A stretch of DNA of 64,000 nt, taken from assembly GCF_003790525.1 (NCBI RefSeq), contig NZ_CP033635.1. One strand, given 5' to 3'. Position 1 is the stretch's first letter, and each line of letters starts with the position of its first letter. The notes beneath the pieces were generated by a model that worked only from the letters and a program-made list of their open reading frames with translations, was not told where the DNA came from and searched no databases. Positions 1 to 32,797 of the stretch are shown here, in pieces. The position numbers and the translations under genes are program-made. The DNA is from Escherichia coli (GTDB lineage Bacteria; Pseudomonadota; Gammaproteobacteria; Enterobacterales; Enterobacteriaceae).

Positions 1-814
1 CTGAGAAAGCGCCATGCGTAAATTTGCCTGTCTCGTAATCAAACTGTCCATGTAGCCAGGCGCAGGGATAGGTATTCAGATAGCGCTCATGTTCGCGCGC
101 CATTCCCTGGGGGCAGCAGAGGAGAATGTATTCACCATCAAGGGCGAAAAGATCAGGACATTCCCACATGTATCCTGCGTTATCAATTTCATTCAGACCA
201 TTACCAGCAATTTCTCCATGAAAAGACCAGGTATAGAGATCGACAGAGGAATACAGCAGCACTTTCCCCCGTTTCTCTTTATCTTGCGCGCCAAGCACCA
301 TGTACCATCGGCTGTTGTGCTTCCAGACTTTTGGATCACGAACATGTCCGGTGTAACCATCAGGTAACGGTATGACAGGGCCTAATTTATCAAACCCGCC
401 CTGGTTATTTTCGGTGGCCAGACATTGCCATGCCGTTCTGCTGCCATCATCAAACTTAACATTACCGGTATAGCAAAGTGTGAGAACGCCCTGATTATTA
501 ACCGCGCTTCCTGAGTAACAACCATTACGGTCATACTCTTTATCGGGCATTAGCGCTAATGGTTCATGCTGCCAGTGCAATAAATCCGTCGAACTCCAGT
601 GCCCCCAACATTTGTACTTATGATTACAATCCAATGGATTCCACTGATAAAACAGATGATAGCGGCCTCCTGACCAGCAAAAGCCATTTGGATCGTTCAT
701 TAGTCCGGTGACGGGAGCGAGATGCCAACAAGGATAGTGGGCATCTGCCTGTGCTTTGGACTGACCTTTCATCACTGCCTGTAAAATCGCGGGCATTTGT
801 GAAGGCATCGACAT
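1..814 (-). CDS. scrB: sucrose-6-phosphate hydrolase (GH32 invertase); N-terminal part only, gene runs off the window start
   Basis: Minus-strand frame open from 814 down to position 1; translation begins MSMPSQMPAILQAVMKGQSKAQADAHYPCWH; ATG overlaps the scrA stop (TAATG). Absent from the ORF track because no stop lies in the window. Confidence 0.75.
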   Translation of the reverse strand, partial: MSMPSQMPAILQAVMKGQSKAQADAHYPCWHLAPVTGLMNDPNGFCWSGGRYHLFYQWNPLDCNHKYKCWGHWSSTDLLHWQHEPLALMPDKEYDRNGCYSGSAVNNQGVLTLCYTGNVKFDDGSRTAWQCLATENNQGGFDKLGPVIPLPDGYTGHVRDPKVWKHNSRWYMVLGAQDKEKRGKVLLYSSVDLYTWSFHGEIAGNGLNEIDNAGYMWECPDLFALDGEYILLCCPQGMAREHERYLNTYPCAWLHGQFDYETGKFTHGAFS

Positions 815-2184
815 TACTCCTCGTCTGTTTTGTATTTGAGCAATAAAGAGAGACTAAAAGCGACAGCGAAAGCAATCACCATTCCAATAATATAATTAAC
901 CAACGATGTTGGCTGAACGATTGCCATGCCGGGTATTGCGGTCAGACCAACGGCAGTCATATAAACGTGAACAGAGACAACCCAGGCACCGCCGGCAGCG
1001 CCACCAATTAAGGCCGCAATAAAAGGTTTAACAAAACGAAGGTTGATACCAAAAATAGCGGCTTCAGTAATCCCTAACATTGCGGAAAAAGCCGAGGGTA
1101 GGGTGATTGCTTTAATTTTTGTATCTTTGGTTTTAAACCATACCGCCAGACATGCACCGCCTTGCGCAACGTTTGCCATTGCCCAAATAGGCAGCAGGAA
1201 ATTAACACCGATTGCAGGGTTACCTAAAAGTCCTGCTTCAATTGCGTGGAAGCTATGATGAATACCCGTAATAACAATCGCTGAATATAGCCCGCCGAAT
1301 AACAACCCCGCTAACCAGCCAGCGTGTGCAATCAGCGTGCTGAGAACGAAAGAGATACCATCACCTAACGCTCGCCCTGCCGGACCAATAATTAAAAGAG
1401 CGATAAAGCCAGAAATGACGACAGTCAGAAATGGCGTCAGAATGAGATCCAGAGCATCAGGGATAAACCTGCGTAACTGTTTTTCCACTATGCTCATAAA
1501 CCATACTGCCAGAAGCACGGGGAAAACCGTTCCCTGATAGCCAATCATGGCGATTTCAAAACCGAAGAAGTTCATTGTCTGAAATCCCGCAGCAACGCCC
1601 CAGGCATTTGTGAGTGCCGGGTGAGTCAGAATCCCTCCTAATGTCGCGCCAAGATAAGGATTTCCACCAAATTCACGAGCAGCAGTAAAGCCAATCAGGA
1701 TGGGGAGAATAATAAATGCGGCTGAACTGCACATATCCAGCAGGATATAAATCGCATTATCGGCATTCACCCAGCCATATGTTTTCACCATTCCCAGAAG
1801 CCCCATTAATAAACCAGAAGCAACAATGGCAGGAATGATGGGGACAAAAATATTAGAAAGCAGCCGTGCTATTCGCTGAAAAGGATTGAGTTTTTGAGCG
1901 GCGAGTCGAGCGGTATCTGCTTTACTGGATTCGCTAATACCCGCAACCTGAATAAAGGCAGCATAGACTTTATTAACCACGCCGGTGCCAAAGATGATCT
2001 GCATTTGCCCTGAATTACGAAAACAACCTTTCACTCCATCAATCTGGCCAATGGCATGTTGATCGGCAAGTGTGTCGTCAACCAGTACCAGCCGTAGGCG
2101 AGTGGCGCAATGTGCTGCACTGGCGATGTTCTCCTTACCACCTAATAAAGGAAGCAACGATTGGGCGATTTTATCGAAATCCAT
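814..2184 (-). CDS. scrA: PTS sucrose-specific EIIBC component
   Basis: 456 aa ORF; N-terminal EIIB-like motif (MDFDKIAQSLLPLLGGKENI...CATRLR) followed by a polytopic membrane domain. Confidence 0.85.
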   Translation of the reverse strand: MDFDKIAQSLLPLLGGKENIASAAHCATRLRLVLVDDTLADQHAIGQIDGVKGCFRNSGQMQIIFGTGVVNKVYAAFIQVAGISESSKADTARLAAQKLNPFQRIARLLSNIFVPIIPAIVASGLLMGLLGMVKTYGWVNADNAIYILLDMCSSAAFIILPILIGFTAAREFGGNPYLGATLGGILTHPALTNAWGVAAGFQTMNFFGFEIAMIGYQGTVFPVLLAVWFMSIVEKQLRRFIPDALDLILTPFLTVVISGFIALLIIGPAGRALGDGISFVLSTLIAHAGWLAGLLFGGLYSAIVITGIHHSFHAIEAGLLGNPAIGVNFLLPIWAMANVAQGGACLAVWFKTKDTKIKAITLPSAFSAMLGITEAAIFGINLRFVKPFIAALIGGAAGGAWVVSVHVYMTAVGLTAIPGMAIVQPTSLVNYIIGMVIAFAVAFSLSLLLKYKTDEE

Positions 2185-2244
2185 ATAACCCTCTAATTCA
2201 TTGTTATTTCAGTAAAAGCCTCACATTCGTGAGGCTGTCTGGTA

Positions 2245-3786
<1,542 letters not shown>

Positions 3787-3806
3787 TTATAAAAATTGCT
3801 AAAATG

Positions 3807-3820
3807 CTAAACCGGTTTAG
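3807..3820. promoter_or_regulatory. perfect 14-bp palindrome CTAAACCGGTTTAG, candidate ScrR (LacI-family) operator upstream of scrY
   Basis: Perfect inverted repeat read directly from the sequence in the scrK-scrY intergenic region. Confidence 0.5.
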
Positions 3821-3865
3821 GTGTTGATAATAAAGCTGACTTTTTAGCCAGAGCAATTATTTTCG

Positions 3866-3879
3866 CTAAACCGATTTAG
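3866..3879. promoter_or_regulatory. second operator-like near-palindrome CTAAACCGATTTAG
   Basis: One-mismatch copy of the 3807-3820 palindrome, 59 bp away in the same intergenic region. Confidence 0.45.
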
Positions 3880-3929
3880 TAAATGTGACAGGCACGACAA
3901 ATCGGGTTACAGATACAACAGCAGGATCA

Positions 3930-4850
3930 CTATTGTGAAGGGAGATCGTGTTGTCGGGGTAAGGCGGTTATCGCGCCTTTAGCCGTGGTCGCCAGAGCAC
4001 CACAAATCTGAGCTTGTGCAATGATTCGTTCAAGCTGTCTGGTATTTGTTGGTATTCCAGAATCAGCCAGACCTGCAAGTAATCCAGCGACAAAAGCATC
4101 TCCTGCCCCGGTCGTATCGACGACAGAAACAGGTTTGGCGGGATAGTGGATAAACTGCCCCTGAAAATACACAAGTACGCCATTTTTTCCTTGTGTAATA
4201 AGCAATAAAGTCAACGAATAACGTTGTACTAATGAATATGCGCCTTGCTGAACCTGGCTTTCGCCACTGATGAATAGCAACTCTTCTTCGGACAATTTAG
4301 CGATATTCGCCAGCGAAAGTGCGCGATCAAGGTATTTCCTTAATAGCGCTTCACTCTGCCAGAGATCGCTGCGGATATTGGGATCAAAACTGATGTTTCC
4401 GCCAGCCTGACGTATTTTCTCCATAGCCAGAAATGCGGTACTTCGGGAAGGTTCTGCACTGAGCGCAATGGAACAAAGATGGAGCCATTCACCCGGCCCA
4501 AATGCAGGAAGGTCACCAGGTTGTAAAAAAAGATCGGCACTTGGGCGTACCATAAAGGTAAAGTTTCTTTCTCCTTGCTCATCAAGTCCTACAGCCACAA
4601 TTGAGGTGCGTTGTTGAGGATCAAGAGACATATAATGTGTATCAACATTTTCTGTACTCAGTGTCTGATACATAAAGCGACCGAAAGGATCATCGCCAAC
4701 TTTGCCAATAAAGGCACTTTTCCCCCCCAGCCTTGCGATACCGACTGCAACATTAGCAGGCGCCCCGCCAGGACACTGTAGTAGTCTCCCCTGGCTTTCG
4801 GGTAATAAATCAACAACCGCATCACCGAGTACCCATACTCTTGCGCTCAT
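3930..4850 (-). CDS. scrK: fructokinase (PfkB/ribokinase family)
   Basis: 306 aa ORF with N-terminal GDAVVD and C-terminal DTTGAGDAF motifs. Confidence 0.85.
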   Translation of the reverse strand: MSARVWVLGDAVVDLLPESQGRLLQCPGGAPANVAVGIARLGGKSAFIGKVGDDPFGRFMYQTLSTENVDTHYMSLDPQQRTSIVAVGLDEQGERNFTFMVRPSADLFLQPGDLPAFGPGEWLHLCSIALSAEPSRSTAFLAMEKIRQAGGNISFDPNIRSDLWQSEALLRKYLDRALSLANIAKLSEEELLFISGESQVQQGAYSLVQRYSLTLLLITQGKNGVLVYFQGQFIHYPAKPVSVVDTTGAGDAFVAGLLAGLADSGIPTNTRQLERIIAQAQICGALATTAKGAITALPRQHDLPSQ

Positions 4851-4867
4851 AAAGGCTCCAATATACT

Positions 4868-4900
4868 AATTGCTAAACTAATTAAATCGGTTTAGCAATT
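4868..4900. promoter_or_regulatory. 33-bp inverted repeat AATTGCTAAAC-N11-GTTTAGCAATT containing a third operator-like copy (TTAAATCGGTTTAG), upstream of scrK
   Basis: Inverted repeat read from the sequence 18 bp upstream of the scrK start codon; shares the GCTAAAC/GTTTAGC half-sites with the two scrY-proximal palindromes. Confidence 0.4.
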
Positions 4901-5014
4901 AAAGCATAAACGCTGCTCAGGAGAGAACAATATTCAGCAGTGGTTACCCGGTATTTTGTGGTGGAAACGTGAATATGCCGGGATTAATCATCTACCCGGC
5001 ACTGTTTATCTCAC

Positions 5015-6493
5015 TTACGCATTCGACCAGCTCTGGATCGAATCTTCATTCCCCAGCTCACCATGCATCACTTCATACGATTTTTTCAGGATCACATCAG
5101 TGTGCTTGGTTAGGTCTTTGAAAATGCCTTTATTCATCGCGTCGTAGCGTTTGGCGTTGCTCTCAACAGGCATAAAGATATCTTTCACGCGAACCATTTT
5201 GTCGACAGCCGTTGCGTAATCCGGGTATAGCCCCAGACCTGCCGCCGTATTGATCGCAGCCCCCAGACTTGCACAACCATTAATGGCGTTTCGGCGTGCC
5301 GGAAGGTTGAACACGTCGGCAAAAATCTGCATAAACAGATCGCTGTTCGAACCGCCGCCAGTAATGATCACATGCTTTGCAAAGTGATTCATTTCATTAC
5401 ACATATTGTCGTAATTGTTCTTCAGCGTCAGCGCCACGCTTTCCAGTATCGAACGATATATCCATGCGTAATCCATGCTGGAATCAAAGCCGATCATAAT
5501 CCCGCGTTTGTATGGTTCCCACGGATTGGTCAGCCAGTCCAGCACCGTCATCAGACCATTACAGCCAGGCGGCACACAAGACGCTTTTTTGTTGAGCAAA
5601 TCTTCCGGTGAAAGATCCTGTGCTTTGGCATCCTGAATTAACGACTCGCCTAGCATGTCGCGTAGCCAGCTCACCGTCCACATGCCTTTGCGAATACCGT
5701 AACCTTCATACAGCAAGGTTTGCGGAATAGAAGACATAATCGGCCAGTACGCTACCGGATCTTTCGGCAGTGCTTTGCCGTTCATCATCAACGCGATGTA
5801 AGTGCCAAGAGAAATTACCGCCGTTTCATCATCCAGTAACCCTGCTCCCAGTGCTTCTACCGGTTTATCACTGGTGGTACAAACAACGGGCAGTCCAACC
5901 GGGAAATGTGTCGCCAGCGCGGCTTGTGGTGTGATATGCCCAAGAACAGTGCCCGGCATTTGCACATCAAAAAGCATCTGTCGGGGAATATTAAACTTCT
6001 CCATTACCGCGGTATCTTCGCTCCATGCCCAGGTCTTATAATCCACCGGCCACTGACCAAAATAGTTGGCGATATTGTCTTTAAACTCGCCGGTTAAACG
6101 GTGTGTCAGATAACCTGAAAAAGAGGTGACATATGCCACATCAGGATTGGTGTGCTCGTAGGGACGTGTAACGCGTGCATCCTGCCAGCTAATCAACGGC
6201 GCAGCTGGCGTGCCATCGGCTTTCAATAACGCACGGCAGCAACGGATGGATCCCAGACCAATACCGACAATATCTTCTTTATTTCCGGCAAACTGACTCA
6301 TCAAATCGTGACCGGCAAAACATAATGATGCCCATAAATCGTCGTCAGGATGTTCTGCGGTATCGGCATCTGGCGTGTGCATCGGCTGCAATAAGCCTTT
6401 GCCTTCGCAAACCACATTACCTTCCAGATCATACATCACCACTTTTGTGCTCTGACTTCCGCCATCAATCCCTATGATGTATTTTTTCGACAT
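5015..6493 (-). CDS. ygcE: FGGY-family sugar (pentulose/hexulose) kinase
   Basis: 492 aa ORF, N-terminal IGIDGGSQSTK actin-fold kinase motif. Confidence 0.85.
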   Translation of the reverse strand: MSKKYIIGIDGGSQSTKVVMYDLEGNVVCEGKGLLQPMHTPDADTAEHPDDDLWASLCFAGHDLMSQFAGNKEDIVGIGLGSIRCCRALLKADGTPAAPLISWQDARVTRPYEHTNPDVAYVTSFSGYLTHRLTGEFKDNIANYFGQWPVDYKTWAWSEDTAVMEKFNIPRQMLFDVQMPGTVLGHITPQAALATHFPVGLPVVCTTSDKPVEALGAGLLDDETAVISLGTYIALMMNGKALPKDPVAYWPIMSSIPQTLLYEGYGIRKGMWTVSWLRDMLGESLIQDAKAQDLSPEDLLNKKASCVPPGCNGLMTVLDWLTNPWEPYKRGIMIGFDSSMDYAWIYRSILESVALTLKNNYDNMCNEMNHFAKHVIITGGGSNSDLFMQIFADVFNLPARRNAINGCASLGAAINTAAGLGLYPDYATAVDKMVRVKDIFMPVESNAKRYDAMNKGIFKDLTKHTDVILKKSYEVMHGELGNEDSIQSWSNA

Positions 6494-6519
6494 GATTTTT
6501 CTCCTGTAATTTTCTGGAC

Positions 6520-7797
6520 TTACTTGCTGCTAGCCATAGCAGGGGCGCTATCAGCAGTACGAATTTTTTGGAACAGCAAAAAGGTAAAGATGATCACCAT
6601 GGCAAGCGCCGCCATGCCCATTAGCCACATGTTGCGGTAGGCTTCTGCAGCGGGCAGGGTGTCTTGCCAGTGGCCGATAATCGGGTAAACGAAGACATCC
6701 GGCAGGAATCCAATCACCGAACAAATACCTACCGTGGTGCCCATAATGTAAGACGGTGTTCTCGCTTCGCCGGGGCAGGCCCAGTACAGTCCACGTGAGG
6801 CGTAGCAGGTGAATCCCAGTAGTAAAATCAGGCCAATCCCCATAGCGACCGATTGCGGGTTAGAGTTGGTAACAAGCAGGGCAGTCAGTGCCAGCAGGCC
6901 GATGATGGAAAGGATTTGAATTACGCGGGTAGGGGATTTCACTTTACTGTAGGTGGTGATAATGCCGCCAAGTGGACCACACAGCGCGCGGAAGATTTTG
7001 TTGATCACAATCCCCATGTAGCTCGCCGCCACCAGCGACATGCCGTACATTTCGGTGAGATAGTTGGTGGAGTAACTCAGAATGGCGTAGATGGTGAAGA
7101 CGCCAAAAATCACCATGCTGCAATACCAGGTGGTGCTGATGCGCAAAACAGCCAGGATGTCGCTAAGCTGGAATGATTGTTTTTCTTCGTTATTGGCACT
7201 GCGCAGGTTGTTGTTATCGCTAACAAAAAACCAGCACAGAATCCCCAACAAGATGTAAACCACACTATAGATGATAATGACCGTTTTCAGGCTGGCGCTG
7301 TCATCCGGTGCAAAGCGAGAAAAGACCCACATGGTAAACACCGCCAGCGACATTACACCGACGCCGCGCAGCCCTTCCATCCAGCCCATAATTTTCCCTT
7401 GCTCGCTATGATCGCCCAGCAACGATGCGGCTTTAATCGACACCGACCACAGCATTAAAATCGTCGTTATCGCAAAGGCAACCTGAATACAGAGCATTAC
7501 CCACAGCGGTGGATAAGTTGCCATTAACAGACCCAGTAATCCGGTAATGATCATCGCGGAAGTAATCATTTTGCGATGTGAGAATTTATCGGCAATAACG
7601 CCACTGGGCGCATAAAGAATAATAGCTGCAATACCAAAGGTACTCATTATTAAACCTATCTCGGTATTGCTGAATCCCATAAATTTCGCCATGGGAATTT
7701 GATAAATATAACGTAAATAAGCCAGGTCGAAACTAACGCCGCCGCTAAAACTAATTATCGCGAGGGTTATCCAACGGCGATATGAGTTGTGTTGCAT
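6520..7797 (-). CDS. yqcE: MFS transporter
   Basis: 425 aa ORF, 12-TM-like hydrophobic profile; 27 bp upstream of ygcE on the same strand. Confidence 0.8.
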   Translation of the reverse strand: MQHNSYRRWITLAIISFSGGVSFDLAYLRYIYQIPMAKFMGFSNTEIGLIMSTFGIAAIILYAPSGVIADKFSHRKMITSAMIITGLLGLLMATYPPLWVMLCIQVAFAITTILMLWSVSIKAASLLGDHSEQGKIMGWMEGLRGVGVMSLAVFTMWVFSRFAPDDSASLKTVIIIYSVVYILLGILCWFFVSDNNNLRSANNEEKQSFQLSDILAVLRISTTWYCSMVIFGVFTIYAILSYSTNYLTEMYGMSLVAASYMGIVINKIFRALCGPLGGIITTYSKVKSPTRVIQILSIIGLLALTALLVTNSNPQSVAMGIGLILLLGFTCYASRGLYWACPGEARTPSYIMGTTVGICSVIGFLPDVFVYPIIGHWQDTLPAAEAYRNMWLMGMAALAMVIIFTFLLFQKIRTADSAPAMASSK

Positions 7798-7821
7798 ATC
7801 GTATTCCCATTTGTAATAGAC

Positions 7822-7869
7822 AAAAAAAAGAGAAAAGTAAGCCGCCCTTTCAGGTGGATTACTTTTCTC
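7822..7869 (-). terminator. leader hairpin plus U8 tract 24 nt upstream of the yqcE start (candidate attenuator/terminator)
   Basis: 11-bp stem GAGAAAAGTAA / TTACTTTTCTC (7830-7840 / 7859-7869) followed on the minus strand by eight U (7822-7829). Confidence 0.5.
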
Positions 7870-7972
7870 AGGTCTCTAGTAATTGCAATAAGAAATAACA
7901 TGGAAAGCAGTGGTGTTGTGTGAGAGTAGTCACGCTTCTGCTTTTTAAAATTATTTGACAATACGAATATCA

Positions 7973-7994
7973 CACTGTGATTACGATCACATTA
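7973..7994. promoter_or_regulatory. CRP-type binding site (TGTGA-N6-TCACA) in the divergent yqcE/ygcW control region
   Basis: TGTGA at 7976-7980, 6-bp spacer, TCACA at 7987-7991: a perfect CRP core consensus. Confidence 0.55.
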
Positions 7995-8043
7995 GCGCTT
8001 ATGCCCTTATGCTAAAAATTATCTCCAGTTACCAGAGATAATG

Positions 8044-8090
8044 AGAAAGGTAACTTCCCTCTCGCGGGGGAAGTTACCTTTCTTTTTTTT
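8044..8090 (+). terminator. leader hairpin plus T8 tract 24 nt upstream of the ygcW start (candidate attenuator/terminator)
   Basis: 15-16 bp stem GAGAAAGGTAACTTCCC / GGGAAGTTACCTTTC (8043-8059 / 8068-8082), 8-nt loop, then TTTTTTTT (8083-8090). Confidence 0.55.
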
Positions 8091-8114
8091 GCTTTACGGA
8101 AATTGGAGTTAACT

Positions 8115-8900
8115 ATGTCAATCGAATCTCTCAATGCGTTCTCAATGGATTTTTTCTCCCTGAAAGGTAAAACAGCAATTGTTACCGGCGGGAATAGCGG
8201 TTTAGGCCAGGCATTTGCCATGGCGTTGGCCAAAGCTGGCGCAAATGTCTTTATCCCTAGCTTCGTCAAAGATAACGGCGAAACAAAGGAAATGATTGAA
8301 AAACAGGGTGTCGAAGTTGATTTTATGCAGGTGGATATCACCGCAGAAGGCGCGCCGCAGAAGATTATCGCTGCCTGCTGTGAGCGCTTCGGTACCGTAG
8401 ATATTCTGGTTAACAATGCCGGTATTTGTAAGCTGAATAAGGTGCTGGACTTTGGTCGTGCCGACTGGGACCCGATGATTGACGTGAACCTGACCGCCGC
8501 ATTCGAGTTAAGCTATGAAGCTGCAAAAATTATGATCCCGCAGAAAAGCGGTAAAATCATTAATATCTGTTCATTATTCTCTTACTTAGGTGGACAATGG
8601 TCACCTGCATATTCTGCCACTAAACATGCTCTTGCCGGATTCACCAAAGCTTATTGTGATGAACTAGGTCAATATAATATTCAGGTAAATGGTATTGCCC
8701 CTGGATATTACGCTACCGATATCACCCTGGCGACACGCAGTAATCCAGAAACCAATCAGCGCGTTCTTGATCATATTCCAGCAAACCGTTGGGGCGATAC
8801 TCAGGATTTAATGGGCACAGCCATATTTCTCGCAAGTCCGGCATCGAATTATGTCAACGGACATTTATTAGTGGTTGATGGCGGTTATTTAGTGCGCTAA
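8115..8900 (+). CDS. ygcW: short-chain dehydrogenase/reductase (KduD/gluconate 5-dehydrogenase-like)
   Basis: Start moved from the ORF-track TTG (8103) to ATG 8115 (MSIESLNAF..., GGAG Shine-Dalgarno at 8105-8108); TGGNSGLG Rossmann motif. Confidence 0.85.
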   Translation: MSIESLNAFSMDFFSLKGKTAIVTGGNSGLGQAFAMALAKAGANVFIPSFVKDNGETKEMIEKQGVEVDFMQVDITAEGAPQKIIAACCERFGTVDILVNNAGICKLNKVLDFGRADWDPMIDVNLTAAFELSYEAAKIMIPQKSGKIINICSLFSYLGGQWSPAYSATKHALAGFTKAYCDELGQYNIQVNGIAPGYYATDITLATRSNPETNQRVLDHIPANRWGDTQDLMGTAIFLASPASNYVNGHLLVVDGGYLVR

Positions 8901-8969
8901 TCCATAACGGTGGTTTCTGTTTTCTCTTATTAATGATTATTCCATTTTTATTATCAGGAAGGAATTACT

Positions 8970-10424
8970 ATGTCTTTATCTCGCGCAGCGATTGTCGACC
9001 AGCTAAAGGAAATTGTTGGTGCAGATCGCGTAATTACCGATGAAACAGTATTAAAGAAAAACAGTATTGACCGTTTTCGCAAATTTCCGGATATTCATGG
9101 CATTTATACTTTGCCTATTCCGGCAGCGGTCGTAAAACTCGGTTCCACAGAGCAAGTGTCCCGTGTGCTGAATTTTATGAATGCGCACAAAATTAACGGT
9201 GTGCCGCGTACCGGTGCTTCCGCCACTGAAGGCGGGCTGGAAACCGTTGTGGAAAACTCGGTGGTGCTCGACGGCTCTGCCATGAATCAAATCATTAATG
9301 TTGATATTGAGAATATGCAGGCCACGGCGCAATGTGGCGTTCCGCTGGAGGTGCTGGAAAACGCGTTGCGTGAAAAAGGTTACACCACGGGGCATTCACC
9401 GCAATCAAAACCGCTGGCGCAGATGGGCGGCCTGGTAGCAACCCGCAGTATCGGGCAGTTCTCCACACTCTACGGCGCAATCGAAGATATGGTCGTTGGT
9501 CTGGAAGCAGTATTGGCTGATGGCACCGTCACACGTATTAAAAACGTACCACGCCGCGCGGCAGGCCCGGACATTCGTCACATTATCATCGGCAACGAAG
9601 GTGCATTGTGCTATATCACTGAAGTAACAGTGAAAATCTTTAAGTTCACCCCGGAAAACAACCTCTTCTACGGCTATATCCTGGAAGACATGAAAACCGG
9701 CTTCAACATCCTGCGTGAAATCATGGTGGAAGGGTATCGTCCGTCGATCGCTCGTTTGTATGACGTTGAAGATGGCACCCAACACTTCACCCATTTTGCC
9801 GACGGTAAATGTGTGCTGATCTTTATGGCTGAAGGTAACCCTCGCATTGCGAAGGCGACGGGTGAAGGGATTGCTGAAATCGTGGCGCGCTACCCGCAGT
9901 GCCAGCGCGTGGACAGCAAGCTGATCGAAACCTGGTTTAACAACCTGAACTGGGGACCGGATAAAGTGGCTGCCGAACGTGTGCAGATCCTCAAAACCGG
10001 CAACATGGGCTTTACCACCGAAGTGTCCGGCTGCTGGAGCTGCATCCACGAAATCTACGAAAGCGTTATTAACCGTATTCGCACCGAGTTCCCGCACGCC
10101 GACGACATCACCATGCTGGGCGGTCACTCCTCTCATAGCTATCAGAACGGCACCAACATGTACTTCGTCTACGACTACAACGTCGTTGACTGTAAGCCGG
10201 AAGAGGAAATCGACAAGTACCACAATCCGCTCAACAAAATCATTTGCGAAGAAACCATTCGCCTCGGCGGTTCGATGGTGCACCACCACGGTATTGGTAA
10301 ACATCGCGTTCACTGGAGCAAACTGGAACACGGCAGCGCGTGGACGTTGCTGGAAGGGCTGAAAAAACAGTTCGATCCTAACGGCATTATGAATACGGGT
10401 ACTATCTATCCGATTGAAAAATAA
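8970..10424 (+). CDS. ygcU: FAD-linked oxidase (GlcD / alkyl-DHAP synthase-like)
   Basis: 484 aa ORF with FAD-binding PCMH-type domain signature. Confidence 0.85.
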   Translation: MSLSRAAIVDQLKEIVGADRVITDETVLKKNSIDRFRKFPDIHGIYTLPIPAAVVKLGSTEQVSRVLNFMNAHKINGVPRTGASATEGGLETVVENSVVLDGSAMNQIINVDIENMQATAQCGVPLEVLENALREKGYTTGHSPQSKPLAQMGGLVATRSIGQFSTLYGAIEDMVVGLEAVLADGTVTRIKNVPRRAAGPDIRHIIIGNEGALCYITEVTVKIFKFTPENNLFYGYILEDMKTGFNILREIMVEGYRPSIARLYDVEDGTQHFTHFADGKCVLIFMAEGNPRIAKATGEGIAEIVARYPQCQRVDSKLIETWFNNLNWGPDKVAAERVQILKTGNMGFTTEVSGCWSCIHEIYESVINRIRTEFPHADDITMLGGHSSHSYQNGTNMYFVYDYNVVDCKPEEEIDKYHNPLNKIICEETIRLGGSMVHHHGIGKHRVHWSKLEHGSAWTLLEGLKKQFDPNGIMNTGTIYPIEK

Positions 10425-10465
10425 TGTGTGAGGCAGCGTTCCGCGATGACGGGGCGTTGCCTTTT

Positions 10466-10496
10466 CGGCTTCTCAGGCGAGAAGCCGTTCTTATTA
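10466..10496 (+). terminator. intercistronic terminator-like hairpin between ygcU and ygcS
   Basis: 9-bp stem CGGCTTCTC / GAGAAGCCG with loop AGGC, followed by TTCTTATTA. Confidence 0.4.
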
Positions 10497-10517
10497 CCGG
10501 ACAATGAAGGGGTAAAG

Positions 10518-11855
10518 ATGAACACTTCACCGGTGCGAATGGATGATTTACCACTTAACCGTTTTCACTGCCGCATTGCTGCGCTCACTTTCGGTGCGCA
10601 CCTGACCGACGGTTATGTCCTCGGCGTCATTGGTTACGCCATTATTCAGCTTACGCCCGCCATGCAACTGACGCCGTTTATGGCGGGAATGATTGGCGGC
10701 TCAGCACTCCTTGGTTTGTTTCTTGGCAGCCTGGTTCTTGGATGGATCTCCGACCATATTGGTCGGCAAAAAATCTTCACCTTCAGCTTTTTGCTGATTA
10801 CGCTCGCTTCGTTCTTGCAATTTTTTGCCACCACGCCAGAGCATCTTATTGGGCTGCGCATTTTGATCGGCATTGGTCTGGGAGGCGATTACTCAGTCGG
10901 TCACACCTTGCTGGCTGAATTTTCCCCGCGCCGCCATCGCGGTATTTTACTGGGCGCATTCAGCGTGGTGTGGACCGTAGGCTATGTGTTGGCAAGTATT
11001 GCCGGACATCACTTTATTTCCGAAAACCCGGAGGCCTGGCGCTGGCTGCTGGCATCAGCGGCGTTACCAGCCTTGCTGATTACGCTGCTACGTTGGGGCA
11101 CGCCGGAATCGCCACGCTGGCTACTGCGCCAGGGACGTTTTGCTGAAGCTCACGCTATTGTGCATCGCTATTTGGGGCCACATGTTTTACTGGGCGATGA
11201 AGTGGCAGCGGCGACCCATAAACACATCAAAACCTTGTTTTCTTCGCGCTACTGGCGACGCACGGCGTTTAACAGCGTCTTCTTTGTCTGCCTCGTAATC
11301 CCATGGTTTGTGATTTATACCTGGCTGCCGACCATCGCCCAGACTATTGGTCTGGAGGATGCGCTGACCGCCAGCCTGATGCTTAATGCGTTGTTAATTG
11401 TGGGCGCGCTGCTGGGATTAGTTCTGACGCACCTGCTGGCACATCGCAAGTTTTTGCTGGGAAGTTTTTTGCTGCTGGCGGCAACGCTGGTAGTGATGGC
11501 CTGTTTGCCTTCCGGCAGTTCATTAACGCTGCTGCTTTTTGTTCTCTTCAGCACCACCATTTCGGCAGTCAGTAATCTGGTGGGCATTTTGCCTGCGGAA
11601 AGTTTTCCTACTGACATTCGCTCGCTGGGCGTCGGTTTTGCCACCGCCATGAGTCGGTTGGGGGCGGCGGTAAGTACTGGCCTGCTGCCGTGGGTGCTGG
11701 CGCAGTGGGGAATGCAAGCCACCTTATTGCTCCTGGCGGCAGTGTTGTTGGTTGGTTTTGTTGTGACCTGGCTATGGGCACCAGAAACCAAAGCACTCCC
11801 GCTGGTGGCGGCGGGAAATGTAGGAGGTGCGAATGAACATTCTGTTAGCGTTTAA
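10518..11855 (+). CDS. ygcS: MFS sugar/metabolite transporter
   Basis: Start taken at ATG 10518 (MNTSPVRMDD...), 445 aa; the ORF-track start at 10428 is an upstream in-frame extension. Confidence 0.8.
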   Translation: MNTSPVRMDDLPLNRFHCRIAALTFGAHLTDGYVLGVIGYAIIQLTPAMQLTPFMAGMIGGSALLGLFLGSLVLGWISDHIGRQKIFTFSFLLITLASFLQFFATTPEHLIGLRILIGIGLGGDYSVGHTLLAEFSPRRHRGILLGAFSVVWTVGYVLASIAGHHFISENPEAWRWLLASAALPALLITLLRWGTPESPRWLLRQGRFAEAHAIVHRYLGPHVLLGDEVAAATHKHIKTLFSSRYWRRTAFNSVFFVCLVIPWFVIYTWLPTIAQTIGLEDALTASLMLNALLIVGALLGLVLTHLLAHRKFLLGSFLLLAATLVVMACLPSGSSLTLLLFVLFSTTISAVSNLVGILPAESFPTDIRSLGVGFATAMSRLGAAVSTGLLPWVLAQWGMQATLLLLAAVLLVGFVVTWLWAPETKALPLVAAGNVGGANEHSVSV

Positions 11856-12612
11856 AGCCGAACCGGATGCCGGAATGCTGGCGGAAAAAGAGTGGCAGGC
11901 GGCGGCTCAGGGTAATATTGGACCAGATGTTTCGCTACTGCGAAGTTTACTCGGTGCTGATGAACAGGCTGCCGCCGCGCTGCTGTTGGCGCAGAGAAAA
12001 AATGGTACTCCGATGTCTTTAACCGCGTTGAGCATGGGGGATGAACGGGCGTTGCACTGGCTGCGCTATCTCATGGCTCTTGGGTTTGAGGAAGCTGTAT
12101 TGCTGGAGACGGCGGCAGATCTGCGCTTTGCGCCGGAATTTGTCGCTCGCCATATTGCCGAGTGGCAGCATCAGAATCCGCTGGATCTGATCATTACCGG
12201 CTGCCAAAGCAGCGAAGGACAGAATGGGCAAACGCCATTTTTGCTGGCGGAAATGCTGGGCTGGCCCTGTTTCACCCAGGTGGAGCGTTTCACACTCGAC
12301 GCGCCGTTTATCACCCTCGAACAGCGTACTGAAAATGGGGTGCGCTGTTGCCGGGTTCGCTTGCCTGCGGTGATTGCCGTGCGTCAGTGCGGTGAAGTGG
12401 CCTTGCCAGTACCGGGAATGCGCCAGCGAATGGCTGCGGGGAAAGCAGAAATTATCCGTAAAACTGTTGCTGTCGAATTGCCAGCGATGCAGTGTCTGCA
12501 ACTGGCAAGAGCAGAGCAACGACGCGGAGCGACGCTGATTGATGGGCAAACGGTAGCAGAAAAAGCGCAAAAGCTATGGCAGGACTATTTACGCCAAAGG
12601 ATGCAGCCATGA
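11833..12612 (+). CDS. ygcR: electron transfer flavoprotein beta-like subunit (FixA-like)
   Basis: ATG 11833 (MNILLAFK...) preceded by AGGAGG at 11822-11827. Confidence 0.8.
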   Translation: MNILLAFKAEPDAGMLAEKEWQAAAQGNIGPDVSLLRSLLGADEQAAAALLLAQRKNGTPMSLTALSMGDERALHWLRYLMALGFEEAVLLETAADLRFAPEFVARHIAEWQHQNPLDLIITGCQSSEGQNGQTPFLLAEMLGWPCFTQVERFTLDAPFITLEQRTENGVRCCRVRLPAVIAVRQCGEVALPVPGMRQRMAAGKAEIIRKTVAVELPAMQCLQLARAEQRRGATLIDGQTVAEKAQKLWQDYLRQRMQP

Positions 12613-13469
12613 ATATCGCCATTGTGACAATAAATCAGGAGAATGCCGCAATAGCGAGCTGGCTGGCAGAACAGGATTTCAGCGGTTGTACCCTGGCGCA
12701 CTGGCAGATTGAACCTCAGCCCGTAGTGGCGGAACAGGTGCTGGATGCGTTGGTGGAACAGTGGCAGCGAACGCCTGCGGACGTTGTTCTCTTTCCGCCG
12801 GGAACGTTTGGCGATGAACTGTCGACCCGGCTGGCCTGGCGTTTACATGGTGCAAGCATCTGCCAGGTGACTTCGTTAGATATTCCAACCGTAAGCGTGC
12901 GCAAATCCCACTGGGGAAATGCGTTGACGGCGACGCTGCAAACAGACAAACGCCCGCTATGCCTTTCGCTGGCACGTCAGGCGGGAGCAGATAAAAACGC
13001 CACGTTGTCCTCTGGGATGCAGCAACTGAACATTGTCCCCGGCGCGCTTCCCGACTGGCTGGTTAGCCTAGAAAACCTGAAAAATGTTACCCGCGACCCA
13101 TTAGCTGAAGCCAGACGGGTGCTGGTGGTGGGGCAGGGCGGAGAGGCAGATAACCAGGAAATCGCTATGCTGGCAGAAAAGCTGGGAGCCGAAGTGGGCT
13201 ACAGTCGGGCACGAGTGATGAACGGTGGCGTTGATGCCGAAAAAGTCATTGGTATTTCCGGACATCTGCTGGCACCTGAGGTGTGTATTGTTGTTGGTGC
13301 TTCCGGCGCAGCAGCGTTAATGGCGGGCGTACGCAATAGCAAGTTTGTGGTGGCGATTAATCATGACGCCAGCGCAGCGGTATTTTCACAGGCAGATGTT
13401 GGCGTGGTTGATGACTGGAAAGTGGTGCTGGAGGCACTGGTGACAAACATTCACGCAGATTGCCAATAA
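12609..13469 (+). CDS. ygcQ: electron transfer flavoprotein alpha-like subunit (FixB-like)
   Basis: ATG 12609 (MNIAIVT...) overlapping the ygcR stop (ATGA). Confidence 0.8.
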   Translation: MNIAIVTINQENAAIASWLAEQDFSGCTLAHWQIEPQPVVAEQVLDALVEQWQRTPADVVLFPPGTFGDELSTRLAWRLHGASICQVTSLDIPTVSVRKSHWGNALTATLQTDKRPLCLSLARQAGADKNATLSSGMQQLNIVPGALPDWLVSLENLKNVTRDPLAEARRVLVVGQGGEADNQEIAMLAEKLGAEVGYSRARVMNGGVDAEKVIGISGHLLAPEVCIVVGASGAAALMAGVRNSKFVVAINHDASAAVFSQADVGVVDDWKVVLEALVTNIHADCQ

Positions 13470-13475
13470 CGTGTT

Positions 13476-13585
13476 GCCGGATGATCCTGCCTACGGTTCT
13501 GGCCTGGGGACTTGTAGGCCTGATAAGACGCGTCAAGCGTCGCATCAGGCGCTGAATGTCGGATGTGGCGTGCAGCCTACAAATC
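13476..13585. repeat. REP/BIME palindromic units in the convergent ygcQ/ygcP gap
   Basis: GCCTGATAAGACGCGTCAAGCGTCGCATCAGGC and flanking GCCGGATG.../...GCAGCCTACA REP-like units. Confidence 0.6.
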
Positions 13586-13615
13586 ACACAAATTCAATTC
13601 GTTACGATTATCCCG

Positions 13616-14191
13616 TTAAAGCAATTTTTTCGCCAACGTCCAGACCCCGGTATTCGTGGTGGAAAGCGCCACGACACCCGCGTTAATCGCATTACGCGCA
13701 TCTTCTTCATCGCACACCAGCCCGCCGGCAATCAGCGGTTGGCGGATTTTCTCCGTCACCCAGCCCAGCACTTTGGGCATACAGCCAGGCAGGATCTCAA
13801 TACAATCCGGATTCGATTGCGCAACTTGCTTATCAATGTTGTGAAACGAAATCGAATCAACAATAAACAGTCGATGAATACAGAAAAAACCTTCCGCTCT
13901 TGCTGCTTTCAGCATTGAGGCTTTGGTACTGATAATTCCGTCCGCCTCGGTCACCAGTTTCAAAAACTGAATCACCACTTCTTTATTTGACGCGCCTTCC
14001 AGCAAATCAACATGAATAAAAGCATATTTCCCGGCGTTCTTAATCTTTTTAACGATATTACTAATGGTGCAGATATTGCCGTACAACACGGAAATAAACT
14101 GGCATTCAGAGTCGATTGCCAGTTGCAGGCTGGCATTATCTTTAACGGCAGCAATCACCGGATTCTGGCGGAGCAGGTGTAAGAGGGGCAT
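13616..14191 (-). CDS. ygcP: GlpP-family (glycerol-3-phosphate-responsive type) transcription antiterminator
   Basis: 191 aa ORF; sequence and size match the GlpP/YgcP family. Confidence 0.8.
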   Translation of the reverse strand: MPLLHLLRQNPVIAAVKDNASLQLAIDSECQFISVLYGNICTISNIVKKIKNAGKYAFIHVDLLEGASNKEVVIQFLKLVTEADGIISTKASMLKAARAEGFFCIHRLFIVDSISFHNIDKQVAQSNPDCIEILPGCMPKVLGWVTEKIRQPLIAGGLVCDEEDARNAINAGVVALSTTNTGVWTLAKKLL

Positions 14192-14207
14192 AAATTATCC
14201 TTATTAT

Positions 14208-14468
14208 TTATCCAAAACGGTAGGTGATGCCGAATCCGGAAGGTGGATAGCGCCACTGTTGTAGTGTTTTTTCGTCGCACAGCAAACGGCAGGTGCCACA
14301 CTCCAGGCAACTGCGATAGTCAATACGTAAGTCACCTTCTGGTGTGAGCGAAAAAAGACCAGCCGGACAAGCGTTAATCAACCATTGTACCGTCTGACGC
14401 TCAACGGAGTCAGCCGGAACAATGTGCGGCGCATCGGCAACGCGCCAGAGATTACGGGCTACAGACAT
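14208..14468 (-). CDS. ygcO: ferredoxin-like protein (FixX-like)
   Basis: Start taken at MSVARNLW (86 aa); cysteine cluster CLECGTCRLLC; overlaps the ygcN stop. Confidence 0.7.
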   Translation of the reverse strand: MSVARNLWRVADAPHIVPADSVERQTVQWLINACPAGLFSLTPEGDLRIDYRSCLECGTCRLLCDEKTLQQWRYPPSGFGITYRFG

Positions 14469-15730
14469 CGCAGACTCCTGATAACATCGCCCGCCAGATG
14501 CCACAGGCCGTGACGACGTAAATGACGCCAGAATAACTGGTGCAGCGGTGGAACAGGTTTATCACCCTGATCCCATAAATCGCGGGAAATATCCTGCATT
14601 AACGCAGGCCACGCCCGATACCAGCCAGGGCGTTGCAAAAGCGCCGGAACATGCTGATAACGTTGTAGAACATCCCACAGCAGGCTGCGCTCTACGTTGT
14701 GATGATAAAGCGCAAACAGATTTTGCGGCTCGCGGTGCTGGCAGGCGCTTATCAGCGTTTGTGCCGCCGCCTGCGCGCCAGTTAGCGCCATATCCATGCC
14801 GCGCACGGAAATTCCGGTATTGACGCAACTGCGCAACGTATCGCCCACCAGCAGCCAGCCGTTACCGGCGTATTGCACCTGCATACTGTGCAAGCCACCT
14901 TCTGGCACCAGATGCGCACCATACTCCAGTGATTCCGTGTTTTTGATAAGCGGGCGCACTGCCGGATGCGTTTTAAAGCGAGCCAGCAGCTCGCTTGCCG
15001 GAACACGACTTTGCGTAAGTGAAGAGAGCGGGCAAACAATCCCTAACGAGAGCGTTTGTTGATTAGTATAAAGAAATGCGCCGCCGGGTAAGTCATCACA
15101 GATCCCGCCGCTGAACAGCAACGCTGCGCCTTCGTTATTCTCCAGATGAAAACGTTCTTCAATAGCGGATGTTTCCAGCGACAGCACTTCTTTGATCCCC
15201 AACGCCATCGCTTCGCCAGCAGGACGAGTCACTAACCCGTGACGTTCAGCCAGGACGCTGTTGGCACCTTCTGCCAGCACCACATAACGGGCGCGGAGAA
15301 TATCGTCACCACAAATGACACCACACACCCTGCCGTTTTCTTCATACAGCGCATCCACCGTCGCACCGGGGATGCATTCGACACCTTCTTTTTCGGCTTC
15401 GGCAACCAGCCACGGATCGAACCGTGCACGTAATACACTCCAGGATTCACCGCCGGGCTGTAAGCTGGAAAACGTCGTTGCGCCATCCGGCGTTAACAGG
15501 GAAAGGCTTTCGTGAGTGATGCGTCGTTCAAGAGGCGCGGTCAGATGAAATTGTGGGAGGAGTTCCGCGAGCGCCTGGGTATATAAACGCCCGCCGGAAA
15601 GATTTTTGCTGCCGGGGATTTCAGCGCGTTCCAGTAACAAAACGGATAAACCCGCTCGCGCGCAGCGTAACGCGCAAGCGGTGCCTGCAATACCGGCACC
15701 AATAATAATAATGTCGCAGTCGTCTTCCAT
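14459..15730 (-). CDS. ygcN: FAD-dependent oxidoreductase (FixC / ETF-quinone oxidoreductase-like)
   Basis: Start taken at MEDDCDIIIIGAGIAG (423 aa); GxGxxG FAD motif. Confidence 0.8.
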   Translation of the reverse strand: MEDDCDIIIIGAGIAGTACALRCARAGLSVLLLERAEIPGSKNLSGGRLYTQALAELLPQFHLTAPLERRITHESLSLLTPDGATTFSSLQPGGESWSVLRARFDPWLVAEAEKEGVECIPGATVDALYEENGRVCGVICGDDILRARYVVLAEGANSVLAERHGLVTRPAGEAMALGIKEVLSLETSAIEERFHLENNEGAALLFSGGICDDLPGGAFLYTNQQTLSLGIVCPLSSLTQSRVPASELLARFKTHPAVRPLIKNTESLEYGAHLVPEGGLHSMQVQYAGNGWLLVGDTLRSCVNTGISVRGMDMALTGAQAAAQTLISACQHREPQNLFALYHHNVERSLLWDVLQRYQHVPALLQRPGWYRAWPALMQDISRDLWDQGDKPVPPLHQLFWRHLRRHGLWHLAGDVIRSLRCL

Positions 15731-21225: not shown

Positions 21226-21246
21226 CCACCACGCGGGGGTAAAACC

Positions 21247-22585
21247 CATAAGCGCTAACTTAAGGGTTGTGGTATTACGCCTGATATGATTTAACGTGCC
21301 GATGAATTACTCTCACGATAACTGGTCAGCAATTCTGGCCCATATTGGTAAGCCCGAAGAACTGGATACTTCGGCACGTAATGCCGGGGCTCTAACCCGC
21401 CGCCGCGAAATTCGTGATGCTGCAACTCTGCTACGTCTGGGGCTGGCTTACGGCCCCGGGGGGATGTCATTACGTGAAGTCACTGCATGGGCTCAGCTCC
21501 ATGACGTTGCAACATTATCTGACGTGGCTCTCCTGAAGCGGCTGCGGAATGCCGCCGACTGGTTTGGCATACTTGCCGCACAAACACTTGCTGTACGCGC
21601 CGCAGTTACGGGTTGTACAAGCGGAAAGAGATTGCGTCTTGTCGATGGAACAGCAATCAGTGCGCCCGGGGGCGGCAGCGCTGAATGGCGACTACATATG
21701 GGATATGATCCTCATACCTGTCAGTTCACTGATTTTGAGCTAACCGACAGCAGAGACGCTGAACGGCTGGACCGATTTGCGCAAACGGCAGACGAGATAC
21801 GCATTGCTGACCGGGGATTCGGTTCGCGTCCCGAATGTATCCGCTCACTTGCTTTTGGAGAAGCTGATTATATCGTCCGGGTTCACTGGCGAGGATTGCG
21901 CTGGTTAACTGCAGAAGGAATGCGCTTTGACATGATGGGTTTTCTGCGCGGGCTGGATTGCGGTAAGAACGGTGAAACCACTGTAATGATAGGCAATTCA
22001 GGTAATAAAAAAGCCGGAGCTCCCTTTCCGGCACGTCTCATTGCCGTATCACTTCCTCCCGAAAAAGCATTAATCAGTAAAACCCGACTGCTCAGCGAGA
22101 ATCGTCGAAAAGGACGAGTAGTTCAGGCGGAAACGCTGGAAGCAGCGGGCCATGTGCTATTGCTAACATCATTACCGGAAGATGAATATTCAGCAGAGCA
22201 AGTGGCTGATTGTTACCGTCTGCGATGGCAAATTGAACTGGCTTTTAAGCGGCTCAAAAGTTTGCTGCACCTGGATGCTTTGCGTGCAAAGGAACCTGAA
22301 CTCGCGAAAGCGTGGATATTTGCTAATCTACTCGCCGCATTTTTAATTGACGACATAATCCAGCCATCGCTGGATTTCCCCCCCAGAAGTGCCGGATCCG
22401 AAAAGAAGAACTAACTCGTTGTGGAGAATAACAAAAATGGTCATCTGGAGCTTACAGGTGGCCATTCGTGGGACAGTATCCCTGACAGCCTACAAAACGC
22501 AATTGAAGAACGCGAGGCATCGTCTTAACGAGGCACCGAGGCGTCGCATTCTTCAGATGGTTCAACCCTTAAGTTAGCGCTTATG
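21247..22585 (+). mobile_element. IS186 insertion sequence (about 1339 bp)
   Basis: 23-bp terminal inverted repeats CATAAGCGCTAACTTAAGGGTTG (21247-21269) and its reverse complement (22563-22585); encodes IS186-type transposase; flanked by a duplicated GGGTAAAACC-type target. Confidence 0.9.
21302..22414 (+). CDS. insL: IS186 transposase (IS4 family)
   Basis: 370 aa from ATG 21302 (MNYSHDNWSAILAHIGKPEEL...); the ORF track starts two codons earlier at a GTG. Confidence 0.9.
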   Translation: MNYSHDNWSAILAHIGKPEELDTSARNAGALTRRREIRDAATLLRLGLAYGPGGMSLREVTAWAQLHDVATLSDVALLKRLRNAADWFGILAAQTLAVRAAVTGCTSGKRLRLVDGTAISAPGGGSAEWRLHMGYDPHTCQFTDFELTDSRDAERLDRFAQTADEIRIADRGFGSRPECIRSLAFGEADYIVRVHWRGLRWLTAEGMRFDMMGFLRGLDCGKNGETTVMIGNSGNKKAGAPFPARLIAVSLPPEKALISKTRLLSENRRKGRVVQAETLEAAGHVLLLTSLPEDEYSAEQVADCYRLRWQIELAFKRLKSLLHLDALRAKEPELAKAWIFANLLAAFLIDDIIQPSLDFPPRSAGSEKKN

Positions 22586-22768
22586 GGGTAAAACCCCGCG
22601 TACTGAATTGTGATGGTTTGGTCTCCTGCACCCTTTTTTAATTTATATTGTTTATGTGAATATTATGCCTATGTTTATTATTCATATATATTACGGATGA
22701 AAATTATTTGATTATTCATAATGTAAATATTTTATTGAACGATATATATCACAGATAATTTTTAATAT

Positions 22769-31426: not shown

Positions 31427-32797
31427 GTGTTCCCTGCGCCAGCGGGGATAAACCGGTGACCATAAGGGCATTTCATACTGCCTTGCTGTGTTCCCTGCGC
31501 CAGCGGGGATAAACCGGTGAACGTGACAACGCCCGCGACAGAAACGTCGTGTTCCCTGCGCCAGCGGGGATAAACCGGGAAGAAGCGGTAAAGCGGGTTC
31601 CAGTTCAGCGTGTTCCCTGCGCCAGCGGGGATAAACCGAAATTAATTTCGAAACGGGCGTTGATGGTGAAGTGTTCCCTGCGCCAGCGGGGATAAACCGG
31701 CTGGCGCACCTTACGCAAAAATAGACGTAAAGTGTTCCCTGCGCCAGCGGGGATAAACCGCCAGGGAGCGAAGCTGTGGCCATGCTGAAAGGGTGTTCCC
31801 TGCGCCAGCGGGGATAAACCGGGGTTCTATTTCCTCGGGATTTGCCGACACGCGTGTTCCCTGCGCCAGCGGGGATAAACCGGTCAACGCTGGTCAGGCG
31901 TGGTACTTCCTCCGGTGTTCCCTGCGCCAGCGGGGATAAACCGGCTGCCGCGCTTTCGGTGTGGGAGCAGTATGAGTGTTCCCTGCGCCAGCGGGGATAA
32001 ACCGAAACTCCGTGGTGTAGTGCGTTTGTTGGTGCGGTGTTCCCTGCGCCAGCGGGGATAAACCGTTGGTATTAACGGGAATGTAGTCACTCCAGGAGTG
32101 TTCCCTGCGCCAGCGGGGATAAACCGGCGATCGTATTTTCCGCTACGTCGCTCAAATGGTGTTCCCTGCGCCAGCGGGGATAAACCGTCGTTGATGGTGT
32201 GATGAGTGTACAAAAAAAAGTGTTCCCTGCGCCAGCGGGGATAAACCGACGACTGAATCCGGCGAGGCTATCAACTGGCCGTGTTCCCTGCGCCAGCGGG
32301 GATAAACCGCCGCACACGTCGAGCTGGTGGGGATTAATGCTGTGTTCCCTGCGCCAGCGGGGATAAACCGCAGTAAACGTTCGCGCGTTCTCGCGCTCAC
32401 GAGTGTTCCCTGCGCCAGCGGGGATAAACCCTCTGTGTATTCGCTACCAGCCAGCACCGGTACGTGTTCCCTGCGCCAGCGGGGATAAACCGCAGGGTAA
32501 CTGGCTGCTCCTCAACCATTCCGCGTGTTCCCCGCGCCAGCGGGGATAAACCGGGGTTTTAGCGACCGGACCAGAGTACGCAACAGTGTTCCCCGCGCCA
32601 GCGGGGATAAACCGTTGCGCCTTAAGTTCCTTAACTTCCTCTGTATGTGTTCCCCGCGCCAGCGGGGATAAACCGGGAGTGATGAATTGGAAGTAACGGA
32701 TAACCGCGTGTTCCCTGCGCCAGCGGGGATAAACCGGACGCACTGGATGCGATGATGGATATCACTTAGAGTTCCCCCCGCCCCTGCGGTAGAACTC
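31427..32797 (+). CRISPR. type I-E CRISPR array: 23 repeats of 29 bp (last one degenerate), 22 spacers of 32 bp, period 61 bp
   Basis: Repeat GTGTTCCCTGCGCCAGCGGGGATAAACCG starting at 31427, 31488, 31549 ... 32708 (every 61 bp); degenerate terminal repeat GAGTTCCCCCCGCCCCTGCGGTAGAACTC at 32769-32797. Confidence 0.95.

Follow-up and report, generated by a model that had tools for sequence, protein, structure and literature searches.

Sucrose catabolism through the phosphotransferase system (PTS) is encoded by the scr regulon, known from the Salmonella plasmid pUR400 and from Klebsiella pneumoniae. The closest described relative of the locus considered here is the chromosomal scr locus of Escherichia coli isolates of phylogroups B2 and F. 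It was reported that in scr-positive isolates of these groups a 6.7-kb scr locus adjoins queE, at the site occupied in scr-negative strains by the CRISPR2.2 array, and that the scr locus has neither an insertion sequence (IS) nor a transposable element on its flanks (Stephens et al. 2024, PMC11251922). As cited in that paper, the correspondence with the CRISPR2.2 site is credited to Diez-Villasenor et al. 2010, and the chromosomal locus had been noted earlier by the same authors and by Trevino-Quintanilla et al. 2007. The present study deals with an scr cluster at the beginning of a 64,000-nucleotide stretch of E. coli DNA (assembly GCF_003790525.1, contig NZ_CP033635.1), hereafter called the window. 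The cluster almost certainly represents the enterobacterial scr regulon (scrK and scrYAB-scrR) in its chromosomal E. coli form, which serves PTS-dependent sucrose catabolism and is an alternative allele to CRISPR2.2/2.3.

Published work has connected the B2/F locus with the sucrose phenotype. Only five genes, scrA, scrB and scrK together with scrR and scrY, separated the Suc+ from the Suc- genomes compared, the cloned scr locus of the B2 isolate SCU-147 conferred sucrose fermentation and growth, and deletion of scrR accelerated growth (PMC11251922). The trait was found mainly in phylogroup F and in the B2 branch containing the sequence types ST131 and ST1193; scr was carried by nearly half of the B2 isolates (4 of 16 among the ECOR B2 strains) and by 4 of 6 ECOR F strains (PMC11251922). 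A 2025 survey of urinary isolates described three states of the interval between ygcE and queE, its 'Region C': occupied by a repeat array, occupied by the scr genes, or empty (PMC12736100). The locus in the window resembles the B2/F chromosomal locus in its genes, their order, the site at queE, the size of 6.7 kb and the absence of flanking IS, and nothing of substance differs between the two. The scr locus, its site, its either/or relation with CRISPR and its sucrose function have already been published, and the window provides one more intact example. The scr genes account for the fast growth of a minority of E. coli on sucrose, a trait that is relevant to diagnostics and to the use of sucrose as an industrial feedstock. 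The ygcE-queE interval, as a two-state locus holding either a CRISPR array or a sugar operon, is also useful for typing.

The more distant systems share the design of the locus. The pUR400 and K. pneumoniae regulons share the five genes of the locus and their order, and the ScrY sequence of the pUR400 crystal structure aligns with the window ScrY without gaps. In K. pneumoniae (L033) the operator boxes also lie at the same distances; however, it represents a different lineage, with proteins 65-91% identical to those of the window. Identity with the plasmid pCX07 is 67% for ScrB, 68% for ScrK, 74% for ScrY, 82% for ScrR and 92% for ScrA. The window scr genes occupy a fixed chromosomal site, whereas those of the pUR400 type are on a plasmid. 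The csc regulon (cscB, cscK, cscA and cscR at argW-dsdCXA), whose products include the LacY-type symporter CscB and the invertase CscA, is likewise an accessory sucrose cluster of E. coli and also encodes a fructokinase and a repressor of the LacI type, but it uses a non-PTS H+ symporter, has no porin, lies at a different locus and supports slower growth (PMC11251922). It was rejected as an identity for the window cluster, whose transporter is a PTS IIBC protein and whose site is ygcE-queE, despite the label 'cscK' in some RefSeq records.

The scr genes and the slot between ygcE and queE

The genes of the cluster in the window, and the flanking gene, are as follows.

1..814, minus strand: scrB, sucrose-6-phosphate hydrolase (GH32), the N-terminal 271 of 469 codons lying in the window
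814-2184, minus strand: scrA, sucrose-specific PTS enzyme IIBC of 456 amino acids (TIGR01996)
2245-3762, minus strand: scrY, sucrose-specific outer-membrane porin of 505 amino acids (match to PDB 1A0S/1A0T/1OH2)
3930-4850, minus strand: scrK, ATP-dependent fructokinase of the pfkB/ribokinase family, 306 amino acids (NF006957)
5015-6493, minus strand: ygcE, FGGY-family sugar kinase of 492 amino acids, core-genome flank outside the island (RefSeq records of SMS-3-5 and K-12, FGGY matches)

A preliminary description, made from the letters of the window, had named scrK, scrY, scrA and scrB, placed them on the minus strand directly next to ygcE and read them as an accessory island. The four identities were borne out by profile scores above the curated cutoffs and by the match of ScrY to 1A0S. 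The positions were also right, except that scrB is incomplete in the window, where its frame opens at 814 and runs off position 1. The same description had expected scrR just beyond position 1. The sequence of E. coli SMS-3-5 (NC_010498.1), to which positions 1-15000 of the window are 100% identical, shows this to be so: the order there is queE, 85 bp, scrR, 25 bp, scrB, scrA, scrY, scrK, 164 bp and ygcE. Both scrB and scrR are complete in SMS-3-5, and all five genes, as read from the window frames and the SMS-3-5 continuation, are on one strand. The scrR product is a LacI-family protein of 335 amino acids, which scores 462.8 bits (cutoff 389.55) with TIGR02417, 'D-fructose-responsive transcription factor'.

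The protein evidence is consistent for every gene. The translation of the 271 window codons of scrB is identical to the first 271 amino acids of the full-length SMS-3-5 protein WP_023141769.1. The full-length ScrB reaches 548.1 bits with TIGR01322 (cutoff 356.4) and matches the solved sucrose-6-phosphate hydrolases 7VCO (E = 4e-79) and 6NU7 (E = 1.5e-68); all three GH32 catalytic motifs, NDPNG (40), RDP (159) and ECP (218), lie within the window part. ScrA reaches 649.6 bits with the sucrose PTS IIBC family TIGR01996 (cutoff 559.3), which covers residues 3-448. Its EIIB phospho-cysteine is Cys26 within the motif HCATRLR, and a family profile search found no match to a IIA domain in the 456 residues. 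ScrA is 91.7% identical to the ScrA of a plasmid cluster annotated with the same five genes. ScrY belongs to the LamB superfamily and has a signal peptide followed by an N-terminal extension of about 70 extra residues; its residues 93-505 align gap-free and end to end with residues 1-413 of the crystallised sucrose porin 1A0S (E = 1.7e-226). ScrK has the motifs GGAPAN (28) and GAGD (248), and its best solved relatives are the fructokinases 5EY7 and 5YGG (E = 1e-96). It should be noted here that RefSeq/PGAP calls scrK 'aminoimidazole riboside kinase' in the majority of genomes, and elsewhere 'cscK: fructokinase'. Since ScrK passes the fructokinase equivalog NF006957 (506.4 bits, cutoff 450), the usual RefSeq product name is misleading.

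In the population sample of 5,426 complete E. coli genomes, ygcE was found in 5,422, and no scr gene is present between ygcE and queE in K-12 MG1655. The preliminary description had taken ygcE to be followed by queE in K-12. The two are not directly adjacent there, as a gap of 1,372 bp with the CRISPR2.2/2.3 arrays and their leader separates them. Within the gap lie a few degenerate CRISPR repeats and an AT-rich spacer, then an array of seven repeats (CGGTTTATCCCCGCTGGCGCGGGGAAC type); the leader, which is AT-rich, adjoins queE. In its place the scr block of 6,721 bp, with a GC content of 46.7% against about 51-52% in the flanks, fills the whole space from the stop codon of ygcE to that of queE. 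Homology with K-12 ends 5 nt past the ygcE stop codon (window position about 5010) on one side and 2 nt past the queE stop codon on the other. No CRISPR repeat was found in positions 1-5100 of the window at up to 3 mismatches. A blastn comparison of the K-12 intergenic DNA with the SMS-3-5 locus gave chance matches of 12-15 nt only (E = 3.9) and no remnant. The two alleles thus occupy the same slot, bounded by the same two stop codons, and have no sequence relationship to each other. The scr block is an alternative occupant of the CRISPR slot and not a simple insertion between adjacent genes. The accessory nature proposed for the cluster was confirmed by the K-12 alignment, in which the same gene order is absent from this site, and by the presence of the lineage in only 987 of the 5,426 genomes. 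The extent given to the island, positions 1 to 4900, encloses the genes but not the whole block, as the control region reaches past 4900 and the match to K-12 begins again only at about 5010.

A classical genomic island or integrative element was considered for the block and rejected. No integrase or transposase is annotated between queE and ygcE in SMS-3-5, no tRNA was found at the ends of the scr island, and neither direct nor inverted repeats were found at either boundary; only the lower GC content fits such an element. Since integrase, tRNA, IS and flanking repeats are all lacking, the scr block most likely spreads among E. coli strains through vertical inheritance and through homologous recombination in the conserved flanking DNA.

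Control regions and the proposed pathway

The preliminary description had implied two transcription units, scrK with its own control region and scrYAB with overlapping or tightly spaced genes. The spacing of the second unit is as described, with 60 bp between scrY and scrA and an overlap of one nucleotide between scrA and scrB (the scrB ATG overlaps the scrA stop codon in TAATG). The following control elements were located.

3763..3929, minus strand: scrK-scrY intergenic control region, 167 bp (inverted repeats, promoter scan, three-lineage alignment)
3866-3879, minus strand: predicted palindromic operator box, CTAAATCGGTTTAG as read on the minus strand (inverted repeat, conservation)
3807-3820, minus strand: predicted palindromic operator box, the perfect CTAAACCGGTTTAG (inverted repeat, conservation)
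3884-3899: CRP-like site TGTCG-N6-TCACA (half-sites TTTG/TCACA conserved in the alignment)
3883-3856: promoter-like TTTACT-16-AATAAT, overlapping the distal box (promoter scan)
4851..5009, minus strand: scrK upstream control region and ygcE-side island junction (inverted repeat, K-12 junction alignment)
4882-4895: predicted operator box upstream of scrK, inside a 35-bp near-palindrome at 4867-4901

Three 14-bp palindromic boxes of the CTAAACCGGTTTAG type are present, two before scrY and one before scrK. In an alignment of the spacer from three lineages that are about 70% identical, the scrY-side boxes and the TTTG/TCACA half-sites stand out as conserved islands in otherwise diverged sequence, and the scrK-side box is conserved against the plasmid lineage of about 71% identity. 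Most of 80 related loci from other species have such boxes too, before scrY at about -116 and -57 relative to its start and before scrK at about -43. The boxes and their spacing support the two transcription units that had been proposed. The CRP-like site is directly upstream of the -35 hexamer, some 42 bp before the inferred start, which is the class II CRP position. In a simple promoter scan nothing upstream of scrK was convincing as a sigma-70 promoter, and no Rfam match to a regulatory RNA was obtained in positions 1-8200.

From this arrangement it could be proposed that ScrR, a repressor of the LacI/FruR type encoded just outside the window, binds the one box before scrK and the two before scrY and thereby represses both promoters, while scrYAB would be activated by cyclic AMP (cAMP)-CRP at the predicted site. 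As the scrY promoter combines a CRP-like site with ScrR boxes, its expression should require both the inducer and cAMP-CRP.

The pathway can be outlined from what has been established for scr of pUR400 and Klebsiella (summarised in PMC11251922). In it, sucrose would cross the outer membrane into the periplasm through the ScrY porin. It would then be taken up and phosphorylated to sucrose-6-phosphate by ScrA through the PTS. As ScrA lacks a IIA domain, the phosphate would come from a host IIA protein, classically Crr/IIA-Glc. ScrB is expected to split sucrose-6-phosphate into glucose-6-phosphate and fructose, and the released fructose would be phosphorylated by ScrK.

Distribution and alternative readings

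The scr lineage of the window was found in 987 of the 5,426 genomes, in each at an identity of at least 98.6%. In 840 genomes scr is contiguous with ygcE, and in 4,575 a K-12-type CRISPR leader adjoins queE. Together these make 5,415 of the 5,426 genomes, a near-clean either/or. No truly empty ygcE-queE site was found in the sample; the shortest variant without scr, that of strain GF3-3 (about 400 bp), keeps the K-12-type leader and one repeat. The window carries the phylogroup-F allele of the SMS-3-5 type, which differs by about 1% from the common B2 allele. Across the cluster and the junction, genomes of ST131 and of other B2 strains (EC958 among the B2 genomes) share 98.8-99.0% identity with the window. 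The remaining copies belong to a version that is about 97-98% identical and ends at window position 4966 and at the scrR stop codon, with no ygcE or queE sequence. It is present on IncF plasmids, flanked by IS1 (L003 6371-12967, p98207-contig_3), and also on the chromosome of E. coli E32 (L088), within an unrelated island that has IS3, H-NS-like and restriction-modification remnants. More divergent plasmid scr clusters of E. coli, Leclercia, Citrobacter and Enterobacter show about 71% nucleotide identity.

Beyond E. coli, about 70 further species of the Enterobacterales show the order scrK-Y-A-B-R. A donor was searched for among 100,044 species-representative genomes, and the context of the 80 related loci was examined. 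No donor species was identified among these genomes, in which one 98% fragment was present in a metagenome-assembled genome of an unclassified member of the Enterobacteriaceae. In none of the 80 loci was ygcE or queE nearby, and the chromosomal ygcE-queE position of scr is specific to E. coli.

No result contradicts the reading of the cluster as the chromosomal scr regulon, but two results set limits to it. The nearest species representatives (Kluyvera, Citrobacter, Enterobacter and Lelliottia) reach only 83% identity in ScrY. Furthermore, a promoter/terminator scan gave no convincing scrK terminator before the scrY promoter. In the absence of a clear terminator, transcription from scrK could be reading through into scrYAB, as has been speculated for the B2/F locus (Stephens et al. 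2024, PMC11251922). The presence of the closely related module on IS1-flanked plasmids and in the IS3-bearing island, together with the lower GC content of the block, could suggest that a mobile element (a transposon, an integrative and conjugative element or a plasmid-derived segment) was acquired recently and targeted the CRISPR array, instead of the block being an old allele restricted to certain lineages. Such an origin is very unlikely, as the ygcE-queE boundaries show no transposase, integrase, tRNA or repeat, and the mobile version stops short of both flanking genes. No flanking IS or transposable element was found in the published isolates either, and the B2/F distribution fits descent within those lineages (PMC11251922).

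For an accessory catabolic cluster it is also important to consider decay. The end of scrB cannot be read inside the window, scr genes of some genomes are interrupted by IS5 or IS2, and in F/ST62 isolates scrY is inactivated by IS3 (PMC11251922). A cluster that is decayed or silent, and non-functional for sucrose use in this strain, is nevertheless highly improbable. Truncated or nonfunctional scr frames were looked for and none was found: scrA, scrY, scrK and the window part of scrB contain no stops and no frameshifts, are full-length against their references where the window permits, reach or exceed the curated thresholds of their families and have intact catalytic motifs, and scrB is cut only by the edge of the window and not in the genome, being complete, like scrR, in the identical SMS-3-5 sequence. 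The lineage has been held at its high identity across all 987 genomes, and in the larger published collection 20 of 24 scr-carrying isolates were Suc+, while the three Suc- isolates that were dissected had IS3 inserted in scrY (PMC11251922). The either/or distribution of scr and CRISPR could in principle reflect more than an old replacement, for instance capture mediated by the array or its leader, or selection that trades a second type I-E array off against sucrose use; any such link is extremely improbable. The strain keeps its type I-E cas genes and CRISPR2.1 although scr occupies the CRISPR2.2/2.3 slot. The cas operon is complete, from cas3 to cas2, at about 22.7-31.3 kb of the window. The CRISPR2.1 array, with 22 repeats at 31429-32734, adjoins iap, and most of its repeats carry a G-to-A variant, GCGCAGGGAAC.

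Other features of the window and its surroundings

Beyond ygcE, the genes yqcE, ygcW, ygcU and ygcS follow. On the other side, past the window, the queE-eno interval of SMS-3-5 (L001 447-1793) contains a gene of the LemA family, three genes with TPM domains, of which one is a pseudogene, and an IS4 transposase adjoining eno; in K-12 the same interval has yqcG and ygcG instead.

An insertion sequence of the IS4 family (IS186/IS421-like), 1,337 bp long, was found at 21248-22584, between a hok/gef gene and cas3. It has a transposase open reading frame at 21296-22414 on the plus strand and 39-nt terminal inverted repeats, and its palindromic 12-bp target, GGGGTAAAACCC, is duplicated on the two sides (21236-21247 and 22585-22596). 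This element is absent from the RefSeq record of SMS-3-5, whose remaining matches to the window are at 100% and 99.998%. At least 1,382 E. coli genomes have the same site occupied.

The mutS-rpoS interval, which we take to be a known polymorphic region of E. coli, lies at about 43.2-45.2 kb of the window (L007 18530-21351). It contains pphB, three genes annotated as subunits B, C and D of a non-oxidative hydroxyarylic acid decarboxylase, and a MarR regulator.

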